Of a stretch of DNA of 64,000 bases, positions 1-6,097 are shown piece by piece (positions within the stretch are counted from its first letter, which is position 1; each line of letters starts with the position of its first letter). The translations under genes and the position numbers were made by a program. The notes beneath the pieces are model-generated. The model had not been told where the DNA came from, did no database searches, and was given only the letters and a program-made list of their open reading frames with translations. Source of the DNA: Hyaloraphidium curvatum SAG 235-1 (lineage: Eukaryota > Fungi > Monoblepharomycota); contig JAIVFI010000047.1 in assembly GCA_025558095.1 (NCBI GenBank), positions 1 through 64,000 on the forward strand, read 5' to 3'.

Positions 1-1
1 C

Positions 2-604
2 GCAGCGGCGGAGACTCGGAACGCCAAGGCCAACGCTACCCGGCTTCCGATTACCTTCCGCCCCGGCGACCTCGTGCTCATCTGGGGACCAGAACGACCG
101 CGCAAGGGCGAGCCGGGCAAGTTCGTCTCTCGTTATCTTGGGCCCTACCGCATCGAGGAGTCAGGCCACACCGACCTCACCTGGAAGTGTAGACACGTCT
201 ACGAGACCGACCACGTCACCACTGTGCATGTGGACCGGCTGGCGCGCTACAAGCCTTGGGAGTCGGCCACCTTCAACGCGCGCTCGTGGAACGCACGCGC
301 CCCGGAGCTCGCCGCCGGTGAAGAGCTCGATCTCTCGGAACCGGTGAACGAGTTCGAAGAGGAAATCGAGGTCGAGAACGCGCTTGGGAACGAGCAGGAG
401 TACACCGTCGAGGACATCGTCGGCCACGAGGGCCAGGGTCACGGACTCAAGTTCGAGGTCAAGTGGCGGGGCTTCGCTCGCACGACCAAGCTCCCTCTGG
501 ACATGTTGCACGGCGCCATAGGGATCGTCCGCGCCTATGCCGATCGCGTTGGTCTCCAGCTCCCGACGGGTCTCCCCAGGCGCATGCGGACTCGGCGTCG
601 CTAG
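2..604 (+). CDS. pol: Pol C-terminus: integrase GPY/F region + chromodomain (5'-partial)
   Basis: Open from base 2: FRPGDLVLIW...KFVSRYLGPYRIEE...VHVDRLARY, then EYTVEDIVGH...KFEVKWRGF (chromodomain Y/W/F); TAG at 602-604. Confidence 0.92.
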   Translation, partial: AAAETRNAKANATRLPITFRPGDLVLIWGPERPRKGEPGKFVSRYLGPYRIEESGHTDLTWKCRHVYETDHVTTVHVDRLARYKPWESATFNARSWNARAPELAAGEELDLSEPVNEFEEEIEVENALGNEQEYTVEDIVGHEGQGHGLKFEVKWRGFARTTKLPLDMLHGAIGIVRAYADRVGLQLPTGLPRRMRTRRR

Positions 605-674: not shown

Positions 675-1660
675 TCAAACCCGACGTACTACCTCGAGCC
701 TATCCTCGACCCCCTCGAACGCCAACTTGTGATACCCGGACTGAAAATGCGTGTTCAGATTGCCCAGGAGGCCCTTAGCCTTGTGCTTTACCAGATGGCA
801 CCACGGGAACGAGCATACCGCCACTTCGCCCTTGGTGGGGCTCCGGTACAGTTCGCCGGCGTACGTTCCGGCAATCTTCCATCGGAGGAAGGAGCCTGCC
901 GGCACGGCATCAGGGACCTTCTTCGTCACCCGTTCCGCCTTCAAGCCCCAGACCGGCGACGACTTCTTCATCTGGCACATTCAGTGACGATCAGCGCTTG
1001 TGGGGCGTACTCCCGTCGAGCCGTTCACCTGCGCAATCTGCTCCCGGGCCTCCCCGCGCTGCACCACATGCCCCTCGTCTTTACCTGAAGTTGCCGTTTG
1101 GGCCGTCTGGAAGGCGCTCCCTTGTTCAGTGGCGGCCTCGAAGTCGCCTAAGTGGTCCAGCTCCCAAGAGGGCGCATGAAGCGTGACTGACAGCACGGGG
1201 ACTTCGTCGGCCGCCTCGAGCTCCTCCCTCGAGTCCGCCGCCGACTCGCCCTCGCCGACGGAAGGCGCACCCTTCGACGACATCGCCGGCAGGAAGACGC
1301 CGGAGGTCCGGGTTGCGGCCGCGGCCGCGATCGGGTCGTTGCCTCTGGCCCCGCCAGCCTCGCGCAGCTTGGCGGTCCCGCCGGCCTCGCGCAGCTCGGC
1401 GACGAGCCGACGGAGCACTCGGACCTCGACAACGACGTTCCCAGCCTCTTCGGCCAGCGGCAACATCCCGCGCATGGCGGCCAGACGCACCAGTTGCAGG
1501 AAGCAGTCGACCACGTCGTCCTCCTGGCGCGGCGCTGAGCTCCCGTTCGAGGACCACGCCGCTACGCTCTTACCTTGGTGCACAGCAGGACGTCGAAGGT
1601 CGGCAACCGAACCTCGAACCACGAACTCGGCGGGACGACGTTCGGCAGCTCCGCACTCAT
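675..1660 (-). CDS. Antisense 3-exon accessory gene (~292 aa) with C-terminal C2H2 (U1/matrin- or BED-like) zinc finger
   Basis: Exons 1660-1574, 1523-1029, 971-675; phase-0 introns 1573-1524 (GTAAGA..CCAG, 50 nt) and 1028-972 (GTGAAC..GCTGATC..CCAG, 57 nt); C-x4-C-x16-H-x5-H motif CSFPWC...NLNTHFQSGYH. Confidence 0.7.
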
Positions 1661-1799: not shown

Positions 1800-1936
1800 A
1801 ACTCGCGGTCGACTCGACTCGCAGTTGACTCGCGGTTGACTCGCGGTTGGCTCGCGGTTGACTCGCAAGTGACTCGCGAGTCACTCGCGAGTCGCTCGCA
1901 AGTCACTCGCGAGCGACTTGCGATGCACTCGCGAGT
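1800..1936. repeat. Tandem array of ~12 degenerate 11-bp units, consensus GACTCGCG(A/G)(G/T)T
   Basis: gactcgcagtt gactcgcggtt gactcgcggtt ggctcgcggtt gactcgcaagt gactcgcgagt cactcgcgagt ... read directly. Confidence 0.95.
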
Positions 1937-1953
1937 TGCCTGCGCTTCGCACC

Positions 1954-1960
1954 ATATAAG
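1954..1960 (+). promoter_or_regulatory. Putative TATA box of internal promoter
   Basis: ATATAAG in GC-rich DNA, ~20 bp after the array and ~70 bp before ATG 2029; same layout as 3623-3631. Confidence 0.6.
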
Positions 1961-2028
1961 CGGCGGACCACAGGAGGCCGCGGCCGCGGACTACGCACCC
2001 AACGTCGACCTCGCCGCTACCGTCTCCC

Positions 2029-3294
2029 ATGGCGACCCCCACGACTGCCGGCCACAACCTGCGGCCCCGCCGGCCGCATGTGGCCACGGCGCCGCCGCCG
2101 GCGACTGCGCCCGTCGCTGCGTTGCCTGGCGTCGTACCCCCGGACTATCGGTCGGCGCTTGCCTCCCTCTCGACCCGGCTGGACGACCTCCGGGCCGACC
2201 TCGACGTCAGACACTCCCAGACGACGGCCCACTTGCACAAGGTCGAGCAGGCCGCCTTCTCCGCGGTCATGCCCATCCGCGCAGCCCTCGACGCACTCCA
2301 CCCGGTGCTCAACACCCTCGTCAATGTCGGCAACCTGGAGCAGCACGCTCTTGACCGCGTAACGGCGACGCTCGAGCAGCAAGAGGCCCGCCTGGACGCC
2401 CAGATCCGCCAGCAGCGTGACGAGCTCCAGGTGGTCCTCAGTGGCCGCCACCGCGAACTTGAGTTCGCCGTCACCGCCTTGCGCCGGACCGACGACGCTC
2501 GTCTCGGTGCCATCGAGACGCAGCTCGACCGGCTTGCGTTGGTGCTCGAGGCTCAACGTCAGAACTTCAACGGCATTCTCCTGGTGGACGAAGCTACCAT
2601 CGAGGAGTTGAGGGAGTTCGGCTCTTCCCTCGCCGGGCTGGTTGCTCAGACCGGGACCAACCTCGAAACCACCATCGAGACCGTCGTCGAGACCAATCTC
2701 GCCCGTCACAACAATGGCCCCATGGCGGAGTTTGCGGCCGACCTCAAGAGCGTCCTGGCGGCCCATCTGCAGCGATTTGGGTCGGAGCAGCACAAGCAGC
2801 TCATGCTTTCAGCTCAAGACCACACCACGCTCCTCACGGCCGGCCTGAACGCGCAGCGCGAGCACTTCACCAAGACCGCCGACGAGCAACGGGCCCTCCT
2901 GCGTCGCTTCCTCGGCAATCAAGTGGCTCCCCTGGCGGGGCAAACGACGCCCGCCGTGGTCACCTCCACGCCGGTCGGCCGCGTCAAGGACGAGGACCTC
3001 GTCACCTCCGACGATGAGGCTGGGGATATGCAACCTCCAGCTCCTCGCCCCGAGAGCGTGTCCAGCAGCGACGCCTCCTCCATCGTCTCGCAGGACGACG
3101 GCCTCTTGGCCGCCCTGTACGACGACATCCCGGCCGCTCCCTACAAGTCGACCATGCCCCCGGTCTACACCCCCTCGGCCGCGGACGGCTCAGCCGTGCA
3201 TGCCGCCTTCGCTCTCGACTTTACCCGCCGGCTCCGCGCCCCGCCGCCGAGCGACGACGAGGCGGACGCCGACGTCGACTTTGAGGACGCCTAA
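2029..3294 (+). CDS. Intronless accessory ORF (421 aa), long helical/coiled-coil core, acidic low-complexity tail
   Basis: Long ORF with GC3-biased codons, heptad-like LxxLxxRL segments, located between pol and the PPT. Confidence 0.75.
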   Translation: MATPTTAGHNLRPRRPHVATAPPPATAPVAALPGVVPPDYRSALASLSTRLDDLRADLDVRHSQTTAHLHKVEQAAFSAVMPIRAALDALHPVLNTLVNVGNLEQHALDRVTATLEQQEARLDAQIRQQRDELQVVLSGRHRELEFAVTALRRTDDARLGAIETQLDRLALVLEAQRQNFNGILLVDEATIEELREFGSSLAGLVAQTGTNLETTIETVVETNLARHNNGPMAEFAADLKSVLAAHLQRFGSEQHKQLMLSAQDHTTLLTAGLNAQREHFTKTADEQRALLRRFLGNQVAPLAGQTTPAVVTSTPVGRVKDEDLVTSDDEAGDMQPPAPRPESVSSSDASSIVSQDDGLLAALYDDIPAAPYKSTMPPVYTPSAADGSAVHAAFALDFTRRLRAPPPSDDEADADVDFEDA

Positions 3295-3421
3295 GCCACC
3301 CTTCGGCCCTACACTCTCCAACATCTGTTGTCTCCACCTCGGCCTTCAACATCTTCTACTGCAAGCATGACGTCACTCCGCGGAGGAGCTTCGATTTCGT
3401 GGCGCCGAGGGCGGCGCCTTC

Positions 3422-3436
3422 TTTTGGGTGGGGGCG
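3422..3436 (+). other. T-tract + polypurine-tract-like segment
   Basis: TTTTGGGTGGGGGCG directly before TG at 3437. Confidence 0.55.
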
Positions 3437-3792
3437 TGCGAAGGTACAGGACGTCTGACATTCGGACAAGGGTATTTTCATTTTCGGTTCGGAGGCGTGG
3501 AGGCGTCGGTCCTCGCGATCGACTCGTGATCGACTCGCGATCGACTCGCGAGTGACTCGCGAGTCACTCGCGAGCGACTCGCGAGCGACTCGCAAGTGAC
3601 TCGGCACAGCCACCCTCCTGGGATATATAAAGAGCGGGACATGTAACAGTACAATCTTGATCGCCAGTTGACTCTACGTGCTCTCCGTGTCGTTCGACCA
3701 CCGTGCGGAACCCCGCCCGGCCGGATCCTCGTTCTGAGAGCCCTTGGGACGCACCCCGGGAGACATCCCGTAACCTCTTTCCCCCGGCTACA
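3437..3792 (+). repeat. Putative 3' LTR (TG...CA; end uncertain)
   Basis: Begins TG after PPT; contains 11-bp array and TATATAA (3624-3630); candidate end ...GGCTACA 3792; second LTR not in window. Confidence 0.5.
3510..3603. repeat. Second tandem array of 8-9 11-bp GACTCGCGAGT-type units
   Basis: gactcgtgatc gactcgcgatc gactcgcgagt gactcgcgagt cactcgcgagc gactcgcgagc gactcgcaagt. Confidence 0.95.
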
Positions 3793-3874
3793 GTCAAGTA
3801 TCTTCAGCGCTGTTCGCTTATTCATATTCAGGGCCTATCCGACCCGAAGAGCCGAGCGGGATTCGCGCGCCGGG

Positions 3875-6097
3875 TTAGAGCTTCAGGCCCGGTTCCGACC
3901 CGGACCGTCGCACTCCGATCTTGCCGGCCGGCAACGGGATGACGGCGGTCGGCATCACAACCGTGGGAGCCACGAGGGCGGCCTCGTTCGGCCAAGGCGC
4001 CGCTGCCGTCGATACCGTGCTCATCTCAGGGATGGCGGAGGGAGGGTCGTTGCTGGGGACGGGGAAGGCGTCGTCGGCTTTGGGCATGCTCATGACTGAG
4101 GGATCCCAGGTCAGCGTCGAGCCCTGGATGTCCTTCCACTTCTCCTGCGAATCCTCCTCGGAGGAGGCGTCGGTCTTATGATCGGCCGCGGCGGCGCGCT
4201 TCCTCTTCATGCCGTAGTACGTCAGGCCGCCGATCGCACCCAGCGCCACCACCCCGCCCACGACGCCGCCGACAATGGCGCCGATGTTGCTCGGGGGCGG
4301 CGGAGGCGGCGGGGCCGCGGAGGAGGCCGAGACAGTCCATAGTCCGGCCTGCGCGCTCGAGCACGAGCCAAGGGTCACTGGCCCCTCGGATGGGACCTGC
4401 AGGCAGCCGGCCGAGGCGCCGAGGTTGGCATTCATGACCTTGGTGGTGCCCGAGGAGTTGAAGAGCGTCCAGTACGGAAGCGCGCCGACCTGCCGCCGCC
4501 GGCGCCCCGCGGATCCGCCAGGGCAGCTTTCGTCGAGCACCGAAGCCGTGGTGCCGGATCGGCGCACTTGGAGGCAAGAAGACCCGCGCTGCAGCAGGAT
4601 GGCCGACGAATCGGGCACCCGGCCGACGGCATACTCGCCCGAAGATCCATCAGCAAGCGAGCACTCCGGGTTGCAAGAGAGACCTTTGGCACCGGAGGCA
4701 ATGAAGATCTTGGAGCCGGGTTCGATCGTCACGGATGTCGCCCCTGCGGGAAGGACGACGGCGGAGCTTGGAACGCTGGCAAAAGTTGTGCCCGAGCCGA
4801 CAGTCGATGTAGCACCTGCGACGGGTGCACTTGAAGTCGTGGCAAAAACGGAGCTCGTGGTGGCCAGCAGGGAGGTCCTTGAAGACGGGACGAGGAACGT
4901 CGAGGTAACGAAAACAGCATTCGAGGTGGATATTGGCCGGAACTGGCAGACGCTGGACGAGCAGCCCGTCGAGTCTGCAGGGCAGCTCGCCCCGCATCGC
5001 CCGCAATGGTTCCGGTCCGAGTCGGTCGAGACGCAGAAGCCGTTGCAGTTGGTGAGCCCTCTGGGGCAGACGCATCTGCCGCCCGAGCACGACTGTCCGC
5101 TGGGACACGCAGTGCCACATTTTCCGCAGTTTTGCGCGTTGGAATCGAGCACGACGCAATTGACGGAGCTCTCGCTGCCGCAGTTTGTCTGGCCGCTGGG
5201 GCAAGTTGGACGGAACTGGCAAGCGCCCGAGGAGCAACCGATTGAATCCGTGGGGCAGCTGTTGCCGCAGTGCCCTGAGCAACAAAAAGATGAGAAAGAT
5301 GCGCTGGCTGTGTGCAGGTTGTTGTGGCTTACCGCAATTGTTGCGATCCGAGCTGGTGGCGACGCAATAGCCGCCACATTCCTTCTGCCCGCTCGGACAG
5401 TAGCAGTTGCGGCCCGAGTTGCCGTCCGACGTGAAGCCCGGGTTGCAGGTGCATGATCCGCCCGTGCACGACGAGAAAGCACCGCAGTTGACTCCCGCGC
5501 AAGGATCGATTGGACGGCAGTTCCTTCCGTCGTTGGAAGACGAGGTGTAGCCGGAGTTGCAGGTGCACGTCCCGCCGGAGCAGGAAGAGTAATCGCCGCA
5601 GTTGACGTTGGCGCAGGGATTGGCTGGCGGAGGCGGAGGACCAGCTCCAACACAGCGGCCACTGGAGCACTGCGCAGAGATCCCAAGTCAGCGATGCACG
5701 GAAGTAGTCTACCGAAACCACAAAGCAGCACCGATTCTCCAGCCCCACATCTGTTGTTCAGTGACCCACAATGTAAGTCATTGTTGTCGAAGTCGAAATA
5801 CTTCATACAAAACACGTCGTATGCTGGGCCATCACTGCAAAGGCATCTTGACAAAGCGCGAACACATTGATCAAACAGAGGGCCAGGACAGTCGCCATCG
5901 GAGTTGCATGGAATGTAACATAGGCCGGCGGGATCAGAACACTGAGGAAACGACCATCAATAAAGGGTGACCTCCTTTTACCATGTGCTCACCTTCCACC
6001 CTGTTGGACACCCGTTCTTGCATAAGGGGTACTTCTGGCTCTCTACCACTTGCGCAGAGCCCAACAAGAAAGAGAACACAACGAAAATGACCGCCAT
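3875..6097 (-). CDS. Multi-exon single-pass membrane protein: signal peptide, Cys-rich Stig1-like repeats, S/T stalk, ricin-B-like lectin region, TM helix
   Basis: MAVIFVVFSFLLGSAQ signal; repeats NAQNCGKCGTACP / DRNHCGRCGASCP; CLQV..LGSC..GLW; TM IGAIVGGVVGGVVALGAIGGLTYY followed by KRKR. Confidence 0.75.

Follow-up and report, generated by a model that had tools for sequence, protein, structure and literature searches.

A phased 11-bp repeat array at an internal site and in the 3′ long terminal repeat of a Ty3/gypsy retrotransposon of Hyaloraphidium curvatum: a candidate shared promoter module

In foamy viruses, Tas/Bel1 sites lie both in the internal promoter and in the long terminal repeat (LTR) (PMC517496). 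We describe a related layout in a stretch of 64,000 nt from the early-diverging fungus Hyaloraphidium curvatum SAG 235-1 (contig JAIVFI010000047.1, positions 1 to 64,000; this whole stretch is called the window), which opens inside an LTR retrotransposon of the Ty3/gypsy group. As in foamy viruses, and at the level of sequence, one and the same array with its TATA offset is found at an internal site and in the LTR, and a putative second promoter lies past the core genes and ahead of the 3′ LTR, with accessory genes beside it. Unlike foamy viruses, the element is a fungal Ty3/gypsy retrotransposon without env, its sites are 11-bp tandem arrays, and its candidate regulator is an antisense, spliced zinc-finger gene. 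The likeness is one of layout; no sequence likeness to Tas was found, and none was sought.

Three further systems invite comparison. The retrotransposons Retand, Grande, RIRE2 and the fungal Boty have antisense open reading frames (ORFs) between pol and the 3′ LTR, Grande gene23 being antisense with a promoter of its own (PMC11963269, PMC7264820, PMC8365987). The Hyaloraphidium element shares with them the long stretch that separates pol from the 3′ LTR, an antisense extra gene and tandem arrays. Retand, however, belongs to a non-chromovirus plant lineage with TRP28 ORFs, while our element has a fungal host, a weak chromodomain and no match to TRP28 (PF04195) in any exon; it also differs from the group in that its extra genes are two and divergent, the antisense one has two introns, and the array recurs in the LTR ahead of the TATA box. 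Arabidopsis VANC proteins are associated with same-orientation tandem motifs, and the VANDALs are DNA transposons for which binding and demethylation are proven (PMC5735166); a short same-orientation tandem motif at several non-coding sites beside accessory genes is common to both cases, but CpG decay is absent here. The element belongs to neither the foamy-virus nor the VANC system. Finally, the vertebrate CGCG element TCTCGCGAGA initiates transcription in both directions, can act together with a TATA box (PRDX1) and raises output when present in tandem copies; in a human promoter that combines it with a TATA box, the main start lies 25 nt past the TATA box and divergent starts lie upstream (PMC6192621). 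Like this element and the ZBED1/hDREF site TGTCG(C/T)GA(C/T)A (PMC6192621, PMC7471704), the Hyaloraphidium unit has a 10-bp palindrome with a TCGCGA core. Those, however, are vertebrate host promoter motifs, the outer bases differ and the units here are mostly one-sided, and the likeness may be convergence or chance. Our literature search, which took in few subscription papers, returned no account of this element, nor of an array common to the LTR and an internal promoter in a fungal retrotransposon.

Two arrays of one 11-bp unit

Period-11 arrays were called across the 64 kb with Tandem Repeats Finder (TRF), which reported them at 1816-1936 and 3512-3603 and gave no further array of the 11-bp unit elsewhere in the 64 kb; the units were then set in a common register. 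The features on which the argument turns are these:

1800..1936, plus strand: internal array (array 1), 11 phased 11-bp units at 1816-1936 and an irregular lead-in from 1800; word (S)ACTCGCR
1955..1960, plus strand: TATAAG, by sequence a putative TATA box for the sense accessory gene
2029..3294, plus strand: sense accessory ORF, a 421-aa orphan with a helical/coiled-coil-like middle and an acidic Pro/Ser-rich tail
3437..3912, plus strand: 3′ LTR, 476 bp, TG...CA, 7/8 inverted ends; placed by sequence and by the flanks of other copies, which join at 3435/3437 and 3913-3917
3510..3603, plus strand: LTR (U3) array (array 2), 8 phased units at 3510-3597 and a half unit to 3603
3624..3631, plus strand: TATATAAA, putative LTR TATA box, the sole TATATA of the window; contains TATAAA at 3626-3631

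The arrays are real and not a product of chance. If one mismatch is tolerated, ACTCGCGAGT has ten matches, all ten within the two arrays, against a mean of 2.74 and a maximum of 7 in shuffled sequence (0/100 shuffles reach ten). An earlier note on this DNA, made from the letters alone, had described both arrays as phased, and both TRF and the register bear this out, except that the regular units of array 1 begin at 1816 and what precedes them from 1800 is lead-in. Its placement of the arrays holds as well. Array 1 is internal and fills the gap between the divergent ATGs of two accessory genes (1660, minus; 2029, plus, the first ATG downstream of the TATAAG at 1955), and array 2 occupies the U3 position of the LTR, upstream of the TATA box.

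The relation of each array to a TATA box required more revision. A TATAAG had been proposed about 20 bp after both arrays; the word is present after array 1, whereas after array 2 positions 3626-3631 read TATAAA, and the gap from the last full unit to the box is 18 nt for array 1 and 26-28 nt for array 2. Counted from the start of the last unit or half unit to TATAA, the distances are 29 bp and 28 bp. TATAA is found at just four places in the 64 kb (three on the plus strand, one on the minus), two of which adjoin the arrays, and because it is so scarce in a window of 65% GC, a TATA-like word would fall within 40 nt of any chosen position with a probability of only about 0.001-0.002.

Arrays 1 and 2 share a head-to-tail orientation. 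An exact 24-nt string is common to both (27 nt in reverse complement), but it is nearly a palindrome and is therefore uninformative on direction. The flanks are otherwise dissimilar, as the earlier note had it: five of six local alignments are no better than shuffles (p 0.55-0.97) and the sixth has an uncorrected p of 0.024. Since the flanks are unrelated, the arrays are not a recent block copy. We also rejected the idea that array 1 is the relic of a nested LTR, given the lack of flank similarity and the mere ~70 nt from TATA box to ATG.

The shared unit had been read as a palindrome, which is true of the consensus and of few actual units. Of the 19 units, 3 agree in full with the unit as then given, GACTCGCGAGT, and 5 form a perfect 10-bp palindrome. 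ACTCG, the left half, is unchanged in 15/19 units and CGAGT, the right half, in 5/19, so the conserved word is directional and the palindrome a property of the consensus. Mismatches number 4 in the left half and 24 in the right, and CTCGC shows 2 changes in 95 positions over the 19 units. On the right side each array has variants of its own, GGTT in array 1 and GATC in array 2. A palindromic seed extended by slippage is the probable origin of the arrays, which turn over independently, each with its own variants. Raw variant counts give p=0.0002, but slippage multiplies variants; counting alleles per array (2 vs 13) gives p=0.01. These figures are suggestive of sequence constraint on the CTCGC core.

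Two properties that had been suggested for the arrays fared less well. The period of 11 bp is not quite one helical turn: at 10.5 bp per turn each unit drifts by ~17 degrees, which adds up to ~170 degrees for the whole of array 1 and ~120 degrees for array 2, so that sites would share a face of the DNA locally, over a few units. The suggested methylation sensitivity is without compositional support, as the observed/expected ratio of CpG is 1.12-1.20 in element and host alike, with no CpG depletion.

Outside the arrays the motif is inconspicuous. In the host background, 60 kb of window DNA searched on both strands and compared with shuffles, no motif was enriched (observed vs shuffle: TCGCGA 46 vs 75, ACTCGCR 18 vs 26, TGACTC 8 vs 28), and there was one phased CTCGCR pair. 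The common dispersed minisatellite that the earlier note had named as speaking against its own reading was not seen there. A scan of viral and metagenome contigs with a pattern of two perfect units returned 3 loci in the former and 17 in the latter. Each locus has 2-4 phased units; none of the 20 had TATAWA within 80 nt, and none gave a tblastn match to the element's proteins. Four phased 11-bp units, intergenic and with AT-rich flanks, were observed at L001:2989-3032 and L017:1061-1103 (unrelated viral/metagenome contig). L002 and L003 hold 2-3 copies of the 11-bp unit, apparently within genes, which we take to be iteron-like.

A regulatory role of the arrays is plausible, and the sequence features point with reasonable probability to a shared promoter module that ties both accessory genes to the LTR. 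The arrays would be multimerised (S)ACTCGCR sites, head-to-tail, ending 28-29 bp before a TATA box. Genomic RNA would be transcribed from the 5′ LTR under the LTR array, and the internal array would serve the 421-aa sense gene by way of the TATA box and, in the divergent direction, the antisense finger gene. With the same array at both promoters, one factor would switch gag-pol and both accessory genes together.

The antisense zinc-finger gene and candidate binders of the arrays

The gene that would be transcribed leftward from array 1 has three exons:

1574..1660, minus strand: antisense exon 1, ATG at 1660; the spliced ORF has 292 aa
1524..1573, minus strand: intron 1, 50 nt, GT-AG; joint 1522>1573 (cut +1) in an X1 contig at depth 611, frame kept
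1029..1523, minus strand: antisense exon 2, 165 codons; a short helical segment is common to the paralogue
972..1028, minus strand: intron 2, 57 nt, GT-AG; joint 971>1029 in an X1 contig at depth 198
675..971, minus strand: antisense exon 3, 98 aa and stop; C-x4-C-x16-H-x5-H putative zinc finger

Contigs of three sequencing runs, X1 to X3, bear on this gene. X2 and X3 are DNA runs of one sample and may be the source of the assembly; their contigs span intron 2 unspliced. No run is on record as RNA, and X1 is treated as RNA because two GT-AG splices are present in it that are missing from the DNA runs. The antisense gene is transcribed and spliced in this one run of one study. The zinc-finger gene postulated in the earlier note is thereby confirmed, with both introns removed in X1 contigs and the Cys and His residues kept in a paralogue. 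A 27-bp tandem duplication at 1350-1401 lies in frame within exon 2.

The paralogue, KAI9034073 (H. curvatum, 274 aa), matches the finger exon at 45% identity (E=4e-11) with 4/4 ligands kept, and matches exon 2 over 26 aa (pairwise E=0.003). It is the sole true relative of the finger exon among 1.84 billion representatives; a second match, to a bacterial Ig-repeat protein, was dropped as spurious. No relatives of the finger exon were found among longer proteins, and a profile search with the finger returned the paralogue alone. Both proteins keep a BED-like Cys2/His2 pattern with upstream aromatics (W, Y, C-x4-C, H-x5-H). BED fingers usually space the cysteines as C-x2-C, which differs from the C-x4-C here. 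The neighbours of the finger in the Atlas, at 0.90-0.92, include zf-BED (12% of one cluster's members) and Spin-doc/GT2D2 fingers.

The human BED-finger protein ZBED1 requires a TCG(C/T)GA core (PMC7471704), and this core is present in 11/19 units. Because the finger is encoded beside the site, is conserved and BED-like, and the ZBED1 core is there, the element's own finger is the best single candidate binder, and we tentatively propose a feedback circuit of the foamy-virus kind. A fuller version, possible but doubtful, would be a circuit in the style of complex retroviruses, in which a bidirectional internal promoter yields a spliced antisense finger, along with a partner that is acidic and coiled-coil, and the finger binds a tandem code private to the element, present in this promoter and in the LTR alike. 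It is similarly tentative that, in such a circuit, the finger would act in trans on its own family, switching it on or limiting it.

Several points weigh against the promoter module or against the finger as its binder. Pfam at E<=10 gave no match for exon 3 or the paralogue, zf-BED (PF02892) included, and there were no PDB sequence matches to the finger. AlphaFold2 models of the finger are poor (predicted local distance difference test scores of 39.8 and 43.1), Foldseek found no match for them at E<=0.001, and the finger's Atlas recognition of 2277 is slightly below the 2300 mark. An H-x5-H end also resembles the RNA-binding matrin/JAZ fingers. For the motif, tests of constraint that allow for slippage are weak (pooled alleles 2 vs 9, p=0.06; left vs right halves 3 vs 9, p=0.15), the core columns were picked after inspection, the copies of the element are nearly identical, and the screen of host DNA spans 60 kb. 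As to expression, the RNA data are contigs of one run of one study, and one X1 contig runs across array 1, so some RNA passes through it. In human cells, ZBED1 knockdown left a gene with a CGCG element unaffected (PMC6192621).

About as likely as binding by the finger, and a real possibility if not a probable one, is that the promoter module is as described but that a host transcription factor is its sole binder, the finger serving protein or RNA binding or integration targeting. This rivals the self-binding step and not the module, and its weight lies within that given to the module. The unit junctions hold eight TGACTC words, which we take to be Gcn4/AP-1-like, though many units are without one. 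LTR enhancers usually use host factors, and the models of the finger are poor. The core equals the CGCG element in 8/10 letters (PMC6192621). On the other side, TCGCGA, ACTCGCR and TGACTC are all at or under shuffle expectation in the host DNA, where the phased CTCGCR pair stands alone.

Less likely is a neutral minisatellite, produced by an old duplication of part of an LTR promoter or by template switching between the two sites, and kept by slippage, with promoter activity coming from the TATA boxes alone. The 24-nt string common to the arrays and the non-significant outcome of the conservative constraint tests would fit such an origin; so would the 2-4-unit runs of the word in unrelated contigs, and tandem repeats without known function are common in pol-3′ LTR regions (PMC11963269). 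Against it, flank similarity has been lost, yet unit, period, orientation and TATA offset are kept, and the variable columns coincide in the two arrays while the variants themselves differ.

It is rather improbable that the arrays act as RNA, through hairpins or a duplex of array 1 with array 2, in dimerisation, packaging, export or RNA interference, perhaps bound by the finger in the manner of Rev and its response element (RRE). Predicted folding is much stronger for either array than for shuffled sequence (z -5.0 to -7.3), the pairing of array 1 with array 2 reaches -137 kcal/mol, RNA crosses array 1 in X1, and the H-x5-H end is typical of RNA-binding fingers. Such folding is automatic for any tandem palindrome, however, and 14/19 units break the palindrome on the right without a matching change on the left. 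Pairing also leaves two TATA boxes at the same offset unexplained, and Rfam yields sub-threshold hairpin matches alone.

A VANC-like anti-silencing pad, with arrays recruiting an element protein that keeps 5-methylcytosine off the copies, is very unlikely: the VANC signature is a high density of tandem motifs, all in one orientation, at non-coding places (PMC5735166), and the three changes at CpG columns 5, 7 and 8 are all CpG-type transitions, but the CpG ratios of element and host carry no decay signature and 5-methylcytosine is near-undetectable in early-diverging fungi according to a review that does not name this species (PMC13297926). Our search, with subscription papers mostly outside it, found no literature on methylation in Hyaloraphidium.

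The retrotransposon, its accessory genes and its insertion site

Three further features frame the module:

1..604, plus strand: pol 3′ end, integrase C-terminal region and putative chromodomain, by translation; the frame is open at the window start
3426..3436, plus strand: polypurine-tract-like G run, by sequence; abuts the LTR start
3875..5806, minus strand: host ORF for a Cys-rich Stig1-like membrane protein; its last ~11 codons and stop are supplied by the LTR

The element is a Ty3/gypsy LTR retrotransposon, probably of the chromodomain (chromovirus-like) kind, multi-copy, with its 3′ end in the window. The pol end matches Pfam Chromo at E=0.0016 and 18.8 bits, under the curated cutoff of 25.1, and by eye the integrase C-terminal region has what we take to be a GPY-type motif. 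Among other copies, in contigs of X1-X3, the flanks differ at both LTR ends, and read depth drops to single-copy level past ~3920. A loose end in X3 has a primer-binding-site-like TGG one base past the LTR end; its best complement in the LTR has 3/12 mismatches, which leaves self-priming unsupported, and the window contains no tRNA gene.

The family is young, of roughly 6-10 copies, since depth ratios are high and substitutions few. On long contigs the depth of element and host flank is 52-60 vs 6-7 in X2 and 33-49 vs 5-6 in X3, and one LTR contig in X3 is at depth 80; summed depths were not taken as copy number, and it is the single long contigs that give a rough 6-10x over the host flank. 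Three substitutions are listed across 3.9 kb in X1-X3, and no 11-nt length variant is among the rows shown for these runs, bearing in mind that contigs lose rare variants. The window copy differs from nearly all contigs at 175, 3218 and 3388, through private changes or assembly errors; the change at 3218 is Gly to Asp in the sense ORF.

As the LTR supplies the last codons and stop of the Stig1-like gene, the element has inserted into the C-terminal coding part of that gene. After the CA of the LTR, 4/4 sequences start with C, and one other insertion matches the first five bases (3913-3917); the C could be a target preference, or the LTR could be one base longer. A TGTAA lies at 3642-3646, 10 nt past the LTR TATA box, and as a poly(A) signal it would make the R region very short; we discarded it in that role for want of enrichment in host DNA (20 vs 18).

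The sense accessory ORF has no transmembrane segment (maximum 19-residue hydropathy 1.2) and no Cys or Trp. The lack of a transmembrane segment speaks against an env-like protein of the errantivirus/Athila type. Protein searches with the sense ORF returned self-copies alone, with Atlas neighbours under 0.8: the near-identical models KAI9025608/610/612 and KAI9000422 are four annotated copies on two other contigs. KAI9025608, 610 and 612 are identical, with alternating accessions on one 817-kb contig, which suggests that whole elements, or the accessory cassette by itself, are clustered there in tandem. In viral contigs no relatives were found for the integrase end, for the finger or for the sense ORF, and eight alternative ORFs of the element are absent from the protein collection.

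An X1 contig covers the sense gene. The drop in X1 cover at ~3600-3866 was not accepted as evidence of where transcripts start or end; 3866 is the first position of two separate contigs, so the gap is probably a missing shared contig. At its left end (3435-3466) the LTR is joined to other flanks in two X1 RNA contigs, one of 4,583 nt at depth 320 and one of 1,569 nt at depth 38, and flanks of the right end are present in X1 at depth 22-28. The left-end joins may reflect host transcripts that end in the LTR or antisense transcripts that the LTR drives outward.

Meaning for retrotransposon regulation

According to PMC11963269 and PMC7264820, it is not known what antisense extra ORFs and tandem arrays located after pol and before the 3′ LTR do. 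The Hyaloraphidium element offers a matched pair, a short motif at both putative promoters and a finger protein that is conserved and expressed. Should a host factor be the binder of the arrays, the element would plainly exemplify the internal reuse of an LTR promoter module, and the motif would be the first cis-element for a barely studied fungal lineage. If instead the finger binds them, the motif and finger would make a pair usable as an orthogonal switch, and a self-regulator of the Tas kind would have arisen in a simple fungal retrotransposon, independently of retroviruses.

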